From: an archaeon
GTDB lineage: Archaea; Micrarchaeota; Micrarchaeia; Norongarragalinales; UBA97
Direction: 5' to 3'
DNA: 64,000 bases
Assembly (NCBI GenBank): GCA_020057405.1
Contig: JAGVFW010000013.1
Span: 1-64,000, forward strand
Shown: positions 5,757 to 59,999 of the stretch, one piece after another
Numbering within the stretch: the stretch's first letter is position 1
Layout: each line of letters begins with the position of its first letter
Program-made: the position numbers and the translations under genes
Notes under the pieces: generated by a model
Databases searched by the model: none
What the model saw: only the letters and a program-made list of their open reading frames with translations
What the model was told of the DNA's origin: nothing

Positions 5757-6791
5757 TCAGCGAACGACGAAGTCAAGCACCGCCTGCGTTACGTAAGGCG
5801 CGTAGGGCTTGACTCTCCGACCGCCGACAATCTCGCAGTTTCTTCTCGCTTTAGCGCACGCCTTTTGCGCGTCCTTCCTCGCGGTTTCAAGAAAGTCGCC
5901 GTCCTCGGGGCCGATGGAATAGTAGTGGACTGTGCCCCCTGGCCTGCAGGCGGCAATTGCCGCGGGCAGGAAGCGCTTTGCGGTTTTCGGCAATGGCAAG
6001 AGGACGCGGTCGGCCCACGATGCAACGGCCTTTCGCTTTAGGAAAACTGCCGCGTCTGCAAGCACCACTTTCACGTTTGAGGCGCGGTTTAGCCGCACGT
6101 TTTTGCGCATCGACTTTACTGCGGCGGGATTGAGTTCAACGGCAACCACTTGCGCAGTTGGCACTCGCTTCGCAATTTCGATTGCAAAAGGCCCGACGCC
6201 GGCAAAGAGCACAAGCACGCGCTCGTTTGGCTTCACTAGTGACGCAACGCGCTGGCGCTCAAAACCAAGGCGGGGTGAAAAGTAAGACTCGTTGAGGTCG
6301 ACTTCGAGGAGCACGCCGTTCTCCTTGTGGATTGAACGCGTACGCCTTTCGCCTGTAAGGACCTTGACTTTGCGAACGCGGAAGCGGCCTTCGGTGATGC
6401 CCGCTCGCTTTGCAACCACCTTGACGCGCGGGCCTAGGGACTCGAGAAGGCACGCGGCAATCAGCTTTTCCTTTATTCTTAGGGACGGTGGCACGTCGAT
6501 GACGGCAATGTCGCCAACGAGGTCAAACGACGTGACTAGCTCCTGCACCTGGGCTTGGGAAAGGATTTTTCTTTCAAGCAGCAACTGCTTGAATGGCTTT
6601 CGCTCGCTGACTTCAAAGTCGCGCTCGCACTTTAGTGCGGCAAAGGGGAGTTTTGGAAGCGGGCCGGTGACTGGCAGGTAGAACCAGTTTCCCTCGCGAA
6701 CGGCAAAAGCACTTTGGACAATTAGGCCCCGTTCCTTTAGGAAACGCTTCGCCTTTTCGGCGTCCTTTAGCGCAACGCGCAAACCCCGCAT
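5757..6791 (-). CDS. trm5: tRNA m1G37 methyltransferase, Trm5/TYW2 family
   Basis: SFDLVGDIAV, HKENG, YFSPRLGFER, LFAGVGPF, ELNP. Confidence 0.88.
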   Translation of the reverse strand: MRGLRVALKDAEKAKRFLKERGLIVQSAFAVREGNWFYLPVTGPLPKLPFAALKCERDFEVSERKPFKQLLLERKILSQAQVQELVTSFDLVGDIAVIDVPPSLRIKEKLIAACLLESLGPRVKVVAKRAGITEGRFRVRKVKVLTGERRTRSIHKENGVLLEVDLNESYFSPRLGFERQRVASLVKPNERVLVLFAGVGPFAIEIAKRVPTAQVVAVELNPAAVKSMRKNVRLNRASNVKVVLADAAVFLKRKAVASWADRVLLPLPKTAKRFLPAAIAACRPGGTVHYYSIGPEDGDFLETARKDAQKACAKARRNCEIVGGRRVKPYAPYVTQAVLDFVVR

Positions 6792-6837
6792 GGTAAAACC
6801 TAAAAGTAATAAGCTAGTCGCGGGTTAAAAACTGCGC

Positions 6838-7656
6838 ATGGACTTCGCACAATTCGTCACCGAGTATTTCGTCAACCCGATTGAAAAGCCGGGCGAGTAC
6901 GCGCCCTACAACATCGTCAACACAATCGTCTTCGCCATTGCCGCGCTCTTGGCAGCCTACCTGATTTTTAGGGCACTAAAACGCTTTGGCGTGCGGGTGG
7001 ATGAAAAGTTTGCCTTTGCGGTAATGCCTTTTGCGGCCCTTGGCGCAATCGCGCGCGTGCTTTCAGACGCCGCGGTCCTGCCGCGAAAGGTCGAGGTCGC
7101 GGGGATTGCGGCTTATCCGTTCATCACGCCCGGGATTTACATCGTCACGTTCCTACTCTTTGCTGCCGCGTTGGTTCTTGCGCTAAAGTTTTCACGCGAC
7201 TGGCAGACTACGCTAGGCCAGGCCGGAATCGCGCTTTCAATAGTGGCGCTCTTGCCTTTGCTGCCGCTCTTTAAGGAATTCACGGCCCTCGCAATTGTTG
7301 GAGGGCTTGTCGGCGTGGCGCTTGCGGCCTACTGGGTCGTTGGCAAGATGAAGGCCTATCCCCTAACGAAGTTCGGGTGGCTCGTTGCGCTCGGCCAGGG
7401 CCTTGACGGCGCAGCGACGTTTGCGGGGGTTAGCGTGTTTGGCTACGGGGAACAACACGTGCTTGCAAACGCGATTTTCTCTGCCGGCTCGCCGTTCGCG
7501 TTCTTTGCACTAAAAATCGCGTTCGCCTTGGCGGTCGCTTATGCCGCTAGCAGAGAAAAAGACGGGGACGAAAAGAACTTCGTGATGCTACTAATTGCAG
7601 TGATGGGCTTTGCCCCGGGATTAAGGGACGTGCTTCGGGTCGCCGCGGGAGTTTAG
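6838..7656 (+). CDS. DUF63-family membrane protein
   Basis: YNIVNT, PFITPGIY, LDGAATF, YGEQHVL, GFAPGLRD; multi-TM. Confidence 0.8.
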   Translation: MDFAQFVTEYFVNPIEKPGEYAPYNIVNTIVFAIAALLAAYLIFRALKRFGVRVDEKFAFAVMPFAALGAIARVLSDAAVLPRKVEVAGIAAYPFITPGIYIVTFLLFAAALVLALKFSRDWQTTLGQAGIALSIVALLPLLPLFKEFTALAIVGGLVGVALAAYWVVGKMKAYPLTKFGWLVALGQGLDGAATFAGVSVFGYGEQHVLANAIFSAGSPFAFFALKIAFALAVAYAASREKDGDEKNFVMLLIAVMGFAPGLRDVLRVAAGV

Positions 7657-8180
7657 CCTGCGCGGGCGACCTTGATTGCGTCAAGGGCTGAGATCGCTTT
7701 TGCCTGGTTCGCCAGGGACTCGTTGAGAACGGTTCTCGAGTTCCGGATGTAGTCGCCAATCGTAATGGCGCAGCCGAGCGGTATCGTGACGTTTCCGCTG
7801 TTGATGTAGCCGTTAAAGCCGATGTAGTAGAGGCACCCGAAGTTGTCCATGTCCTTGAAGTTTTTCTGCGCCTTTATCACTGAAGCGTTGGTGGAAAGCG
7901 ACTCCAGGCGCGTCTGGGCTGAAGCAATTGCGTCGAGCTTCTCCTGCGAGAATTCCTTTGCCTGCGAGTCTGCGAGGGCCGTGTCGCATGTTGCCTGGTC
8001 GGCCTTGGCTGAGTCAAGGGAGGACTGGAGTTTTCCGTTTGCAGCGTCGGAGGCGTCGCACTTGGTCTGGAGCGTCTGGAGTTGTGAAGTCAGCTCGGCA
8101 ATCTTCGGGTCTGGCGCATTAGACGAGAGGCAGCCGAAAAGAATCGAAGCGGCGATTAAAGCAAGAAACAATTTTTTCAT
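7653..8180 (-). CDS. putative lipoprotein with coiled coil
   Basis: Signal peptide with lipobox LFGC. Confidence 0.65.
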   Translation of the reverse strand: MKKLFLALIAASILFGCLSSNAPDPKIAELTSQLQTLQTKCDASDAANGKLQSSLDSAKADQATCDTALADSQAKEFSQEKLDAIASAQTRLESLSTNASVIKAQKNFKDMDNFGCLYYIGFNGYINSGNVTIPLGCAITIGDYIRNSRTVLNESLANQAKAISALDAIKVARAG

Positions 8181-8259
8181 ACGCGAAGCACCACAAGCCT
8201 TAGCGGCGTGGGGCTTTTAATCCTTGCGCGCAGAAAGTTGTTCCGGTGCCCACCAATCT

Positions 8260-8760
8260 ATGCCCAAAGCCCTCGTGCTGTATGCTTCCGGACAGGGGGC
8301 TTCCGAAGAAATCGCGCGGGCGATTTACGGAGGCGCGAGCGAAACCGGGCTTGAAACTAATTTAGCCAGCGCGGCTTTGGCTCCAACCGTGGCAGACTAC
8401 GACCTCGTCTTTCTTGGAAGCGGGATTTACGGCTTTGGCCGCTTTGACTCAAAAGTTCTTGCGCTTGCAAGGCAGGCCAACTGGCAGGGCAAACGCGCGT
8501 GCGTGTTCGCGACTCACGGCGGCCGGGGGAAAGCTCACGTCGAGGCGGTTGCGGCCGAGCTTGAGGGCAGGGGCGCCAGGCTGTGCGGCACTCTATCGAT
8601 TCAACTGCCCGGCCTTGCGGCGATGATAGGGAAAGGAAAGCCGTCGGAAACGGACATGGTGCGCGCTTTTGCCTTTGGCGAAAAACAGGCGTACGACTTG
8701 ATTGGCAGGCGCCCGGCTAAGGACCAGGAAAAGTCGCGCATCAAGGGCTACCGCAAGTGA
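8260..8760 (+). CDS. flavodoxin-like protein
   Basis: VLYASGQGASEEIA FMN-loop-like motif; YDLVFLGSGIY. Confidence 0.75.
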   Translation: MPKALVLYASGQGASEEIARAIYGGASETGLETNLASAALAPTVADYDLVFLGSGIYGFGRFDSKVLALARQANWQGKRACVFATHGGRGKAHVEAVAAELEGRGARLCGTLSIQLPGLAAMIGKGKPSETDMVRAFAFGEKQAYDLIGRRPAKDQEKSRIKGYRK

Positions 8761-8775
8761 CTTGCGCTATGATGG

Positions 8776-8871
8776 TTACCTGAGGCTCTTGACGTCGCGA
8801 TAGCAGGTGACTGCGAGGCGCCATGCAAACACCGAGACTAGACCGAAAGCTAGGATTGTCCAAAGTTCCAT
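8776..8871 (-). CDS. putative 31-aa single-TM microprotein (MELWTILAFGLVSVFAWRLAVTCYRDVKSLR)
   Basis: Read by hand; starts 8 nt after the upstream gene's stop on the same strand. Confidence 0.4.
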   Translation of the reverse strand: MELWTILAFGLVSVFAWRLAVTCYRDVKSLR

Positions 8872-8878
8872 CTTGTTT

Positions 8879-9253
8879 TCACGCGCTGTTTGCAACTTCG
8901 TAAATCGCCTTTAGAGACACTACAGCAGCGGCAGGTGCGATGACCGCCACGAAGTAGGCGAGTATGGACGGCAGGGTGAATCCGAACCATGCGAAACCCA
9001 CGGCCGACTCAAGGCCCGCAATGACGCCGGAAAAGCTGCCTGCGGCGACAGTAAAGGCAATTGTGGCAACGAGGAACTCAACAGTCTCCTTGCCGTTCAC
9101 GTTGACAACGCCGATGACGAGGCCCATCAAGCCGAGGACTAGGGTAATCATCGGGTTTTGCGGAGCGAAGACGCCTGCGCCGATTGCAAGCACCAGGCCG
9201 ATGAAGAACGCCCAAGCGCCGATGAGCGGCCACGTGTGATTAGCCTTAGCCAT
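8879..9253 (-). CDS. 4-TM membrane protein
   Basis: G-rich SD before ATG 9253; four hydrophobic segments. Confidence 0.7.
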   Translation of the reverse strand: MAKANHTWPLIGAWAFFIGLVLAIGAGVFAPQNPMITLVLGLMGLVIGVVNVNGKETVEFLVATIAFTVAAGSFSGVIAGLESAVGFAWFGFTLPSILAYFVAVIAPAAAVVSLKAIYEVANSA

Positions 9254-9659: not shown

Positions 9660-9920
9660 ATGGTTAAGTACGCAATTGCAAAACAACTTGCTGGAAAGCG
9701 CATCATCACGACCGACGGCGAAGAGCTCGGCCGCGTGATTGACCTGTACATGAACGAACTCAATGGCAAAATTGAGCGCGTGATTGTCGAGCCCAACCCG
9801 GACTCGTCGCTTGCGCAGCGCGCAGACCAGGAAACCGGCGGAATGATTACCATCCCCTATTCGAGCGTCCTTGACGTCAAGGATGTCATGGTAGTCGACC
9901 GACGCGAGCTCACGGGCTAA
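9660..9920 (+). CDS. PRC-barrel protein (CdpB-like candidate)
   Basis: GKRIITTDGEELGRVIDL...IPYSSVLDVKDVMVV; GGTGA SD. Confidence 0.85.
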   Translation: MVKYAIAKQLAGKRIITTDGEELGRVIDLYMNELNGKIERVIVEPNPDSSLAQRADQETGGMITIPYSSVLDVKDVMVVDRRELTG

Positions 9921-10780
9921 AGCTCCAAGCCCACTTCCTTTTCTTTTAAATCCTTAGCCTTGGCGAGAGCCTCTTCCACTTTCTCGAAGTTCTCGAAAAT
10001 CAGTTCCCCGGCGCGCTTGGCCTGCGCCTCTTCCGCCTCAAGCTCGACCATTCGCTTCTTCTGCTCCTCGAGCGAGTGCTTGAGTTTGGCAAACTGCTTT
10101 GCAACATCGCCTGACGGGGACTTCTTGGTTTCGACAAAGTCCTTGTAGTAAGAGTCAAGGGCCTCATTGAATGAAGTGAACTCCCGCGGCTCGCCTTTTG
10201 CGTCTTCGACAGGTTCGGCGGCAAAAGAAAGGGCCCCGCTGCCGTCGTAGTAGACGACTGCCCTTGGAACCTTGCCTTCCCATGCCGCAACTGCGTCGGC
10301 AATCTTGCCTGACGACTCGCCTTGGGCGGGCGGCTCGTAGATTGAACCGGCGTGAAGTTTTCTTCCGCCAAGCTCGATTGAACGCATTTGGCGGATGACT
10401 TTCCCACGCTCGTCAAGGAGCATGGCATTGCCCTTGCCGAACTGCTCGAAGACCAGGGTCCGCTTGCCGCCCTTGGCTAGAAAATGCAGTGCAACTAGCC
10501 TATCGGACTGCAGCTGCTCGGATTTGTCAAGCACGGCGTTGTCAAGCTCGCGCCGCACCGCCTCTACGAAGCTGGAGGGCTTTTCCTGCGGTGCTGCAAA
10601 GAAGTGGCTCAAGTGCAGCCGCACGCCGGGCTCGATTAGGAGATTGAACTCGTTTCCCTGCTTGCGCAGGCGCAGGCGGACGCAGTTGCCAGAGTCGTAA
10701 GCGTTGTCAAACCGGCTGCCTTCGGCTGCCGCTAGCTCGGCAACTGCAAGGAAATAGTCAACAGTCTTCATCTGCTGCAT
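9917..10780 (-). CDS. RqcH/NEMF (NFACT) N-terminal half: NFACT-N plus first coiled coil
   Basis: LLIEPGVRLHL, PSSFVEAVRREL, SDRLV, EQFGKGN, FNEALDSYY, GELIFENF. Confidence 0.8.
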   Translation of the reverse strand: MQQMKTVDYFLAVAELAAAEGSRFDNAYDSGNCVRLRLRKQGNEFNLLIEPGVRLHLSHFFAAPQEKPSSFVEAVRRELDNAVLDKSEQLQSDRLVALHFLAKGGKRTLVFEQFGKGNAMLLDERGKVIRQMRSIELGGRKLHAGSIYEPPAQGESSGKIADAVAAWEGKVPRAVVYYDGSGALSFAAEPVEDAKGEPREFTSFNEALDSYYKDFVETKKSPSGDVAKQFAKLKHSLEEQKKRMVELEAEEAQAKRAGELIFENFEKVEEALAKAKDLKEKEVGLEL

Positions 10781-11095: not shown

Positions 11096-12082
11096 TTAGC
11101 CCTTGTGGTCGGGCTTGCCCGCCAAAACCATGTGCGCGAGGAGCGCTTCGAGTTGGATTCGCGGGTCGGCGCCCTGGCTCATGCGGAAGTCGTACTCGCC
11201 AATGCGGTCGATGAGCTCGACTTTCTTCCTGTCGTCAACTTCCAAGCTGTTCACCTCGCGGTGGATTTGGGAGATGACGTCCTCGCCGCTCATGCCGTAT
11301 TTTACCATGAGCTCGTCGAGTTGTTTTCGCGCGTCGGTGAAACGGCCCGAAAGAGCGAGCTTGACCATCTCGGCAACTTCAGATGGCCTCGCGCGCGAGC
11401 TCACCGCAAGAATGTCGTCTTCTTTGAGGTGCTTGCCCATTGCCGCTGCGCCCTGCATGACGTTGACTGCCTTTCTTGCGTCGCCTGCGGCGACGTAGAT
11501 TATCGCGGTTCTGGCTTCAGCGTCAAGCTTGAGGTCCTCGTGCTTGGCGATGTTGTCTACGATTTTGCCAATGTCTTCATCCCCAAGCGGCTTGAAACGG
11601 AAGACCGCGCAGCGGCTCTGGAGCGGCTCGATGATTTTGCTCGAGTAATTGCAGGAAAGGCAGAAGCGGGTGTTTGACGAGTACTTCTCCATCGTGCGGC
11701 GAAGGGCCTGCTGCGCGTCGTCAGTGAGATTGTCGGCCTCGTCAAGCAGGATGATTTTGAACTGCACGTCGCTCATCGGGAGCGTGCGGGCGAAGTCCTT
11801 GATGTGGCCGCGGACAACGTCAATGCCGCGCTCGTCAGAAGCATTTAGTTCAGCAAAGCACTGTCCCACGTTCTCGCCGTAAAGCTCGTGAGCCATTGCT
11901 AGGATGCAGGAAGTCTTGCCGATGCCCGCTGGGCCGGCCAAAAGCAGGTGCGGAAGATTACGGTTCTTCACGTACGCTTGGAGGCGCGCGACAGCGTCCT
12001 TGTGGCCTATGACCTCGCTAAGCTTTCTGGGACGGTACTTCTCTAGCCACGGCTGGAATTCTCCGGCGCCTTCCTTGCTCAT
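11096..12082 (-). CDS. rfcS: replication factor C small subunit
   Basis: PWLEKYRP, GPAGIGKT, ELNASDERG, LDEAD, SRC. Confidence 0.97.
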   Translation of the reverse strand: MSKEGAGEFQPWLEKYRPRKLSEVIGHKDAVARLQAYVKNRNLPHLLLAGPAGIGKTSCILAMAHELYGENVGQCFAELNASDERGIDVVRGHIKDFARTLPMSDVQFKIILLDEADNLTDDAQQALRRTMEKYSSNTRFCLSCNYSSKIIEPLQSRCAVFRFKPLGDEDIGKIVDNIAKHEDLKLDAEARTAIIYVAAGDARKAVNVMQGAAAMGKHLKEDDILAVSSRARPSEVAEMVKLALSGRFTDARKQLDELMVKYGMSGEDVISQIHREVNSLEVDDRKKVELIDRIGEYDFRMSQGADPRIQLEALLAHMVLAGKPDHKG

Positions 12083-12144
12083 AAGGAGAAATTAGCGCGG
12101 GAAGACTTTTAAGCCCGACGCGGGGAGTGTGCAAGCTGGGGGTG

Positions 12145-12400
12145 AAAAAGAACGAACCGCCGGCGATTTGCGCTTCCAGCATGGTCAGGCGCCCAAACAA
12201 GGCCGTTTGAAGCCTGCGCATCCACGCGCCTATCCGGCCGGATACGGGAACCCCCCACGCATCCCATCACAAACGAAGCGCTTTTGGCGCAATAGCCTTA
12301 CGGCTGGTGCTATGAAGGGTTGCACAAGGTTATCCCGCAAGCCACGCTGAAGGGTACGCTCGCGACGGTTCTGTTGCAGAATTGCTTCGTGGGTCGAAGC
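12145..12400 (-). ncRNA. unidentified structured non-coding RNA (~250 nt)
   Basis: Own TATA (TTTAAAAG 12429-12422) and U-tract (12149-12145); long-range helices GAACCGUCG/CGGCGGUUC and UUCAGCGUGG/CCAUGCUGGA with G-U pairs on the minus strand; several internal hairpins. Confidence 0.65.
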
Positions 12401-12502
12401 GATAGTGATTACGGAGTCCGGCTTTTAAACGGTGCAATTCCAGTATTCGAAAAATCGGCGTGCCGTTGGCTAATTGAATTTAGTTTTAGGGCGCCAAAAA
12501 AT

Positions 12503-12688
12503 TTAGGCGCTTAGGAACTTCTTGCGCTTCTTGATGTCGCCCCAGCAGTCCTTGCAGAGCACCAAGCGCTTGGTCTTGCTTGCAGTGAGCGAGCTCTTTT
12601 GGCAGTCGCGGCACACCATTCTGGTGCAGCCCGAGCACGCTTCCATATAGTAAGCGTCTTTTCCGCAGCGTCCACACTTGCCTGACAT
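12503..12688 (-). CDS. small Cys-rich zinc-finger protein
   Basis: Four CxxC pairs (CGRC, CSGC, CRDC, CKDC). Confidence 0.75.
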   Translation of the reverse strand: MSGKCGRCGKDAYYMEACSGCTRMVCRDCQKSSLTASKTKRLVLCKDCWGDIKKRKKFLSA

Positions 12689-12748
12689 AGTAAATCCACT
12701 CCTTAACAACCGATTAAAAGAATCGGCGCAATAGGGATTAGCGATAAA

Positions 12749-59852: not shown

Positions 59853-59999
59853 TGGGCCTACGGGGATTTGAACCCCGGCGCTCTGGTTGGCCTAGAAACG
59901 CGTCCGTTGCGGACGCGCGTCATATAAGACTTGCGCGAAAAAAGGGCGGGAAAACCAACCCCGTTTCACAGCGCTCTGGCCAGACTGAGCTATAGGCCC
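59853..59999 (-). tRNA. tRNA-Ile(TAT) with two introns (29/30: 59931-59968; 37/38: 59889-59922)
   Basis: Removing both introns gives a 75-nt cloverleaf with anticodon arm CUGGU-CUUAUAA-ACCAG; both junctions form BHB motifs. Confidence 0.9.

Follow-up and report, generated by a model that had tools for sequence, protein, structure and literature searches.

We examined the intergenic region between a zinc-finger gene and rfcS on the minus strand of a 64,000-nucleotide (nt) stretch of archaeal DNA (positions 1 to 64,000 of contig JAGVFW010000013.1, assembly GCA_020057405.1), hereafter the window. The assembly to which it belongs, genome G000, comprises 1.22 Mb in 17 contigs and is 90.6% complete. 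The region very probably holds a real, new and stand-alone gene whose product is a structured non-coding RNA about 255 nt long. The RNA family is previously undescribed and is so far known only from one family-level clade of Micrarchaeota-like (DPANN) archaea. Along the minus strand the locus is laid out as follows, the two TATA elements and the T run having been read from the sequence.

12503-12709, minus strand: zinc-finger open reading frame (ORF) of 68 amino acids (aa) with four CxxC motifs, upstream of the RNA on the same strand.
12422..12429, minus strand: TATA box TTTAAAAG of the RNA gene.
12384..12400, minus strand: 5' leader hairpin of 6 base pairs (bp) with ACCCAC in its loop, beginning 21 nt after the TATA box.
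12145..12149, minus strand: T5 run, a putative archaeal terminator.
12106..12113, minus strand: TATA-like box CTTAAAAG of rfcS, which lies outside the RNA and marks its boundary.
11096-12082, minus strand: rfcS ORF, with Pfam Rep_fac_C and AAA matches.

Five copies of the RNA were compared: that of the window genome, those of three other species genomes of the same family (G001, G002 and G003) and that of one metagenome contig (L123). A TATA-like octamer lies 29-66 nt upstream of the modelled core in all five, and a GGAAT.GCA-like element is found just 5' of the TATA box in four; the combined GGAAT..TATA pattern occurs only once in the 1.22-Mb window genome. From the distance to the TATA box, transcription would be presumed to start near 12400. 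The 5' leader that follows varies between copies and carries a small hairpin, whose ACCCAC motif is present in four copies, G001 and G002 included, and absent from G003; in L123 the hairpin is kept by way of a U-A to U-G change. At the other end, a T run of at least 4 nt occurs within 45 nt after the core in three of the five copies, G002 and G003 being those without it.

Folding energies distinguished the two strands of the region. The minus strand of 12140-12405 folded at -111.4 kcal/mol (z -2.93), a stability that none of 200 dinucleotide shuffles attained, and the plus strand at -97.3 kcal/mol (z -0.84), equalled by 35 of 200 shuffles. Across all five copies the sense strand folds 11.8-18.6 kcal/mol below the antisense strand. 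G-U pairs make up 16 of the 80 model pairs in the window copy (range 5-16 over the five copies), which fits the argument of a preliminary description of this DNA that wobble pairs identify the minus strand as the RNA strand.

To collect homologues we gathered the regions upstream of rfcS from 30 loci and used two covariance models, R1 built from a single sequence and R2 from three. BLAST of the 266-nt RNA against 40 relatives retrieved only matches of 15-38 nt (E of at least 4.6e-4), none of which proved homologous, and R1, run over 41 genomes, recovered G000 and G001 only. The copy in G001, which belongs to the same genus, was detected by nhmmer in the rfcS-upstream regions (E 1.8e-7) and scores 131.5 bits with R2. 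The contig L123, first met in a motif scan, scores 211.7 bits, and G002, which belongs to the family but to a different genus, 34.8 bits (E 2.0e-6 in the genome-wide search and 3.9e-8 to 4.5e-8 over small locus sets). G003, which represents a third genus, scores 21.3 bits (E 1.3e-4) in a scan of 25 rfcS loci with filters off, where it was the one match below E 0.01 (locus L042); the next-best match of that scan (13.7 bits, E 0.038) was not accepted. We accepted the G003 copy because, correctly oriented, it takes up the 358 nt that separate the zinc-finger stop from the rfcS start, with its own TATA-like box, a 9-bp closing helix and a 10-mer in arm B (see below) in common with G002. Homologues upstream of rfcS, which the preliminary description had proposed to collect, thus exist and, as shown below, carry many compensatory changes.

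The distribution of the RNA appeared narrow. Over the 40 relatives R2 returned three real matches and three further ones at E > 1, and it found no copy in the other 36 relatives, that is, 33 genomes of other families of the order and G004-G006 of the RNA's own family; near rfcS of G005 and G006 nothing scored above 9.2 bits. A motif scan of genome contigs gave 56 stretches, of which 55 were bacterial or unrelated and were taken as chance, while the last (L106) was identical to the G001 sequence and was not counted again. The same scan of metagenome contigs gave a single stretch, L123. Among 401 genomes sampled across the phylum, a set to which G001 did not belong, the motif pattern was present in two, G000 and G002, both members of this family, and none of 61 motif-bearing stretches from viral contigs passed R2 at E up to 1. 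Altogether, the RNA is carried by four of the seven species genomes of one family, plus one metagenome contig; distant homologues beyond the reach of R1 and R2 may have been missed. Short DNA contigs matching parts of 12163-12454 with 80-99% likeness were also found in each of the four metagenome runs examined, which came from four studies and from sediment, groundwater, soil and freshwater. Within the window genome there was a single full match, the other two being 18-20 nt long with E > 0.5, so that the gene is present in one copy.

The fold is strongly reflected in the way the copies differ. Pairwise identity between them is 39-64%, save for G000 and L123, which are 90% identical. In the five-sequence alignment, A10, 94.7% of 361 pair cells are paired and 44 of the 80 pairs change on both sides. 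Control alignments in which partners were slid by 1-3 columns gave 36-43% paired cells and 5-14 both-side changes, and none of 500 shuffles, a control that takes no account of relatedness, reached the observed values. The alignment of G000 and G001 alone has 96.6% of its pair cells paired and 15 of 80 pairs changed on both sides. MAFFT alignments of sub-domains (A11 and A12) were structurally inconsistent and were not used for a shorter model. Overall, the RNA forms a long terminal stem capped by a four-way junction with three arms, A, B and C, and its elements, listed from the 5' to the 3' side of the stem with their place in A10, are these.

12360..12371, minus strand: 5' strand of the closing helix P1, 12 bp, pairing with 12154-12166 (helix 1).
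12356..12359, minus strand: 5' strand of P1b, 4 bp in all five copies, pairing with 12170-12173 (helix 2).
12352..12355, minus strand: inner bulge on the 5' strand, 4 nt, opposite an unpaired nucleotide at 12174 (columns 22-25 and 275-276).
12342..12351, minus strand: 5' strand of P2, 10 bp, pairing with 12175-12184 (helix 3).
12245..12337, minus strand: arm A, a long and irregular stem whose end bears two small hairpins (helices 4-7).
12231..12244, minus strand: arm B, a short hairpin of 5 bp with a 4-nt loop (helix 8).
12188..12230, minus strand: arm C, an outer 5-bp helix and an inner GGC/GCC hairpin (helices 9 and 10).
12185..12187, minus strand: junction sequence UGA, which links arm C to the 3' strand of P2, its GA kept in four of the five copies.
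12175..12184, minus strand: 3' strand of P2 (helix 3).
12170..12173, minus strand: 3' strand of P1b (helix 2).
12167..12169, minus strand: outer bulge on the 3' strand, three purines (columns 281-283).
12154..12166, minus strand: 3' strand of P1, with one bulged C (helix 1).

In the terminal stem, 11 of the 12 pairs of P1 change on both sides in A10, with 98.2% of cells paired; the four pairs of P1b (columns 18-21 with 277-280) are paired in 100% of cells; and P2 has 90% of its cells paired, with both-side changes in five of 10 pairs. The corresponding numbers of pairs changed on both sides for helices 4 to 7 of arm A are 5/5, 9/20, 1/4 and 2/4. The terminal hairpin loops of arm A vary (GUAA, GUCA and UUCG), and its 3' strand carries UUUGUGAUGG at 12264-12273, identical in four of the five copies. 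Arm B is longer in G001-G003, and the 10-mer CCUUGCAAGG found there is common to G002 and G003. In arm C, the sequence CAAAC in the loop of the inner hairpin (12205-12209) is complementary to GUUUG a little downstream (12194-12198). The loop and the downstream segment are complementary in all five copies; in G003, which has CGAAC and GUUCG, each side differs from the other four copies by a single change, and complementarity is kept. As the GGC/GCC hairpin and the CAAAC-GUUUG pairing overlap or abut and the connecting loop is only 1-5 nt, the sequence suggests that arm C is either a tight pseudoknot or a switch between two mutually exclusive states.

These results agree in most respects with the preliminary description, in which the TATA box, the 5' hairpin, the T run and two enclosing helices (12371-12363 with 12162-12154, and 12351-12342 with 12184-12175) had been placed correctly. 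Of the arms it named, CCC/GGG with its extension, AGCC/GGCU, GCGC/GCGC, UAUCC/GGAUA, GGCGC/GCGCC and AGGCU/GGCCU recur in the present fold, but a local hairpin UUGCG..UGCAA does not: its bases belong to the long stem of arm A in the fold that covariation supports.

Taken together, the data favour a gene that would be transcribed from its own TATA box and end at the oligo-T run, and we infer from the sequence that the two delimit an independent transcription unit. Its product, a stably folded RNA, would work in trans and, to judge by its architecture, would most likely provide the scaffold of a ribonucleoprotein (RNP). The conserved patches of single-strand-like sequence, namely the 3' strand of arm A and the loop of arm C with its partner, could then serve as the working surface, the CAAAC loop and GUUUG forming either a compact pseudoknot or two exclusive states, and the functional core is probably UUUGUGAUGG together with arm C. 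These genomes are reduced, to about 1 Mb, and their retention of a separate 255-nt gene for this RNA, promoter included, argues for a real role in the cell. That role is unlikely to be a broadly essential one, since the searches of other families did not find the RNA.

Several observations weigh against this interpretation. The transcript is predicted from DNA sequence, and two of the five copies have no T run of at least 4 nt after the stem. The number of related sequences is only five, two of them 90% alike, so that independent changes are few, and A10 was fitted to the structure of the model, which favours that structure. The 21.3 bits of the G003 copy are no better than the score of the antisense strands of true copies (about 23 bits). 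The RNA was not found in three of the seven species genomes of its own family, which are 72-82% complete, and was absent from the searches of every other family of the order that was covered. No protein partner is linked to it, the zinc-finger gene being conserved across the order irrespective of the RNA, and the role of RNP scaffold is drawn from architecture only.

The irregularities of the terminal stem point to a possible, if rather unlikely, refinement of the stand-alone gene, in which its transcript would be the precursor of a circular RNA. P1, the 3-nt bulge, the 4-bp helix P1b, the second bulge and P2 would together make up a bulge-helix-bulge (BHB) site of the relaxed kind. Once the tRNA-splicing endonuclease had cut in both bulges, the excised inner part (about 186 nt, approximately 12353-12168, comprising P2 and arms A-C) would be closed into a circle by RtcB. 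The geometry is consistent across all five copies. The outer bulge, on the 3' strand, is exactly 3 nt long and consists of purines (AAA in three copies, GAA and GGA in the others), the central helix always has 4 bp, the 5' strand carries the inner bulge of 3-4 nt, and the flanking helices (P1 with 9-12 bp and P2 with 10 bp) exceed the 2 bp needed on each side. The stagger is that of a pre-tRNA with a 37/38 intron, as worked out from tRNA numbering, since with an intron at that position the bulge of the 3' splice site must adjoin the anticodon stem on the 3' strand. All the sequence-conserved motifs lie inside the part that would be excised, and both enzymes are encoded in G000 (a 407-aa frame with two PF01974 matches, and RtcB at 576.8 bits).

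There are precedents for such processing. Archaeal pre-rRNAs are handled in this way at their 16S and 23S processing stems, and so is the permuted SRP (signal recognition particle) RNA of Thermoproteus, which is circularised (PMC4731332). The present RNA resembles these in that its flanks form a long helix in which each strand bears one bulge, the two being separated by 4 bp and staggered in the canonical manner. According to passages of PMC3239211, relaxed sites may have bulges of 1-4 nt or lack one bulge, and the three-unit endonuclease of Ca. Micrarchaeum cuts strict 3-4-3 as well as relaxed sites. The present RNA differs from the processed RNAs named above in that its inner bulge is part of a loop of 3-4 by 1-2 nt and its cargo, the part that would be released, is neither rRNA nor SRP RNA.

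The inner bulge is, however, not a clean one. It is 4 nt long in the covariance-model alignment, and hence in the window copy, 3 nt in L123, and can be read as 3 nt in G001-G003; it faces 1-2 unpaired nucleotides (one under the 3-nt reading), so that the site departs from the strict form, and a relaxed form is plausible. Any functional irregular stem would also keep its bulges. Nor did the organism's own RNAs provide a guide: a look-alike of the BHB geometry in the 16S processing stem occurs in G000 only, is unused in the minimum-free-energy fold and has no counterpart in G002, whose bases at the bulge position are paired, and neither this stem nor a tRNA with an insertion, taken as calibration, gave support either way. 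The fuller proposal, that the product is a covalently closed circular RNA of about 186 nt, excised at the BHB by an endonuclease of broad specificity and of the three-unit type and sealed by RtcB, with the four-way junction and the arm C element as the core of a lineage-specific RNP or catalytic RNA, is more doubtful still. Were BHB processing to take place, tRNA-splicing machinery would here make a stand-alone circular RNA from a dedicated gene, and DPANN archaea would have, in the circular product, a stand-alone structured RNA of a new class.

The RNAs and the enzyme considered in this connection showed several features of their own. The splicing endonuclease of G000 lies at G000:C6:129521-130000 (plus strand) as a single 407-aa frame with two catalytic-domain matches, an arrangement that fits the three-unit type as it is described in passages of PMC3239211. 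The tRNA mentioned above, at 59853-59999 of the window (minus strand), is a 43.4-bit match with an insertion of about 75-83 nt, in which Rfam and ARAGORN place no canonical 37/38 intron; it probably has a non-canonical intron or two introns. On contig C11 of G000 (132846-141592, minus strand) the genes for 16S rRNA (140071-141592), 23S rRNA (135910-139650) and RNase P RNA (132846-133114) stand in a row on one strand. The 23S gene exceeds the 2987-position model by about 750 nt, and next after the 16S gene comes a tRNA-like sequence. In G002 the 16S gene (G002:C21:15326-18198, minus strand; loci L199 and L202) is interrupted, matching the model in two pieces with its 3' end about 2.9 kb from its 5' end, as would be expected if one or more large insertions lay close to the 3' end.

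Returning to the stand-alone gene, we analysed its genomic context. All five copies are located upstream of rfcS, on the same strand and within about 50-1200 nt. No gene intervenes between the RNA and rfcS in G000 and G003. The interval holds an antisense YbjQ-like gene in G001, a 180-aa ORF together with an antisense YbjQ-like gene in G002, and in L123 a 177-aa ORF unrelated to that of G002. The zinc-finger gene is found upstream of rfcS in 11 of the 30 loci across the order, with or without the RNA. Where nothing has been inserted the gap between the two genes is about 53-107 nt, and where something other than the RNA has been inserted it is the YbjQ-like gene. As the adjacency of the zinc-finger gene and rfcS is ancestral and is present without the RNA, we conclude that the RNA gene entered a spacer already present in the ancestor, and that this history probably accounts for its linkage to rfcS. 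A Pfam scan of the flanking ORFs, which covered the window and L123 and left three of seven window ORFs and two of three L123 ORFs without any match, found no transposase, Cas or other mobile-element family.

This context bears on a reading of the RNA as a cis-acting leader or riboswitch-like element controlling rfcS or the next gene downstream, which we consider improbable. The constant position upstream of rfcS on the same strand would suit it, as would the loci without an intervening gene, in one of which (G003) there is also no T run before rfcS, and aptamers commonly combine a four-way junction with a pseudoknot. However, in both G000 and G003 a TATA-like box belonging to rfcS itself precedes its start by 30-40 nt, the genes named above separate the RNA from rfcS in the other three loci, and in other families the adjacency of the zinc-finger gene and rfcS exists without the RNA. 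We therefore rejected a riboswitch or leader, in line with the view of the preliminary description that the RNA is probably not the leader of rfcS.

A few observations were made on the proteins encoded here. The zinc-finger protein found 5' of rfcS (58-68 aa, four CxxC motifs) gives a weak B-box-like zinc-binding match (E 5.6e-4). In L123 rfcS (6341-9232, plus strand) is a 963-aa frame with an intein carrying a LAGLIDADG domain, and in G007 and G008 the rfcS matches fall in frames of 797 and 790 aa and start at query residue 79, which suggests inteins there too.

We also asked whether the RNA belongs to a described family. At Rfam 15 gathering scores the window contains a 5S rRNA and four tRNAs, with nothing at the RNA locus. 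With E up to 10, the only match in 11900-12700 was a chance one to a fungal SRP model (14 nt, 9.9 bits, E 8), and the four homologous loci (24,008 nt) gave three chance matches with E of at least 7, none of them over the RNA. The case for a new family thus lies in the negative outcome of every family test run, rather than in the demonstration of a new mechanism. The preliminary description, which had seen neither the SRP helix-8 motif nor canonical RNase P CR-I/CR-V, had inferred a novel or highly divergent RNA and had suggested looking for the canonical RNAs elsewhere in the genome, and the present results support its interpretation. RNase P RNA (RF00373) has no model match in the region or at the four homologous loci, and the genome's own is found on another contig (C11:132846-133114, 94 bits); SRP RNA (RF01857) has none beyond the fungal chance match, and the genome's own, a full-length match, is likewise located on another contig (C10:2906-3173, plus strand, 65.5 bits, E 9.6e-15). 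The latter score is under the Rfam gathering score of 96.5, and standard annotation would miss this SRP RNA.

A highly divergent member of a described family, such as a second RNase P or SRP RNA, a box C/D or H/ACA guide, a transposon-associated guide, a retron RNA or a Y RNA, is accordingly very unlikely. Its size and the closing helix that joins its 5' and 3' ends do resemble those of RNase P and SRP RNAs, which are stand-alone stable RNAs of 250-300 nt with their own archaeal promoter, ends held in a long helix and a branched covarying structure; but in the present RNA the four-way junction sits directly on P2, and it is confined to one family-level clade, not universal. The other resemblance is to box C/D small RNAs, in which box C (consensus RUGAUGA) and box D (CUGA) are joined into a kink-turn by the terminal stem. 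GUGAUGG and CUGA, similar to boxes C and D as commonly given, occur in three of the five copies, whereas in G002 the C-like motif is kept but the D-like one is reduced to its GA, and in G003 both are missing. The flanks of these motifs are not complementary, there is no kink-turn at a terminal stem and the motifs are paired elsewhere in the supported fold; moreover, an archaeal C/D small RNA is about a quarter of the size of this RNA, which has no terminal stem beside the boxes. Complementarity to the 16S, 23S, 5S, RNase P and SRP RNAs of G000 extends to 11 nt at most, a length reached or exceeded in 49 of 200 shuffles and hence not above chance. A retron or other reverse-transcriptase-associated RNA and a Y RNA were dismissed on the grounds that G000, at its 90.6% completeness, has no match to PF00078 (reverse transcriptase) or PF05731 (TROVE).

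Least likely of all, and largely refuted, is that the region is a small protein gene or else DNA without function that happens to fold well, either left over from a small mobile element with inverted ends or a GC-rich structure that arose by chance. The closing helix could pass as terminal inverted repeats, other insertions (the YbjQ-like gene and ORFs) have entered the spacer that separates rfcS from the zinc-finger gene, and ORFs of 53-73 aa overlap the region, but the single full copy per genome excludes a miniature inverted-repeat element or other repeat, synteny and promoter are conserved, the former across three genera, pairing is kept through double changes in 44 of 80 pairs, strand-specific G-U pairs included, and none of the ORFs is conserved, since indels break their frames and six-frame matches arise only between the two 90%-identical copies and jump between frames.

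Structured non-coding RNAs of more than 200 nt with complex folds backed by covariation are rare, and several have proved to be ribozymes or the cores of large RNPs. To our knowledge archaea have very few of them apart from those that are universal, and full-text literature searches on non-coding, structured and small RNAs of Micrarchaeota and DPANN archaea brought up no such RNA. Its closest counterparts in kind are raiA, OLE, GOLLD and ROOL, orphan classes of large structured non-coding RNA discovered by comparative genomics, which are bacterial and each represented in Rfam. Like them, the RNA described here combines a complex covariation-backed fold with conserved patches and its own predicted transcription unit, and they too had no function assigned at discovery. 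In contrast to these classes it is archaeal, smaller than most of them and represented by five sequences, and none of their models matches it. Elsewhere in the window, at 9917-10780 (minus strand), a 287-aa ORF matches NFACT over no more than the N-terminal and middle part of the profile (positions 9-166 of 456), and may be either a short form or a split gene.

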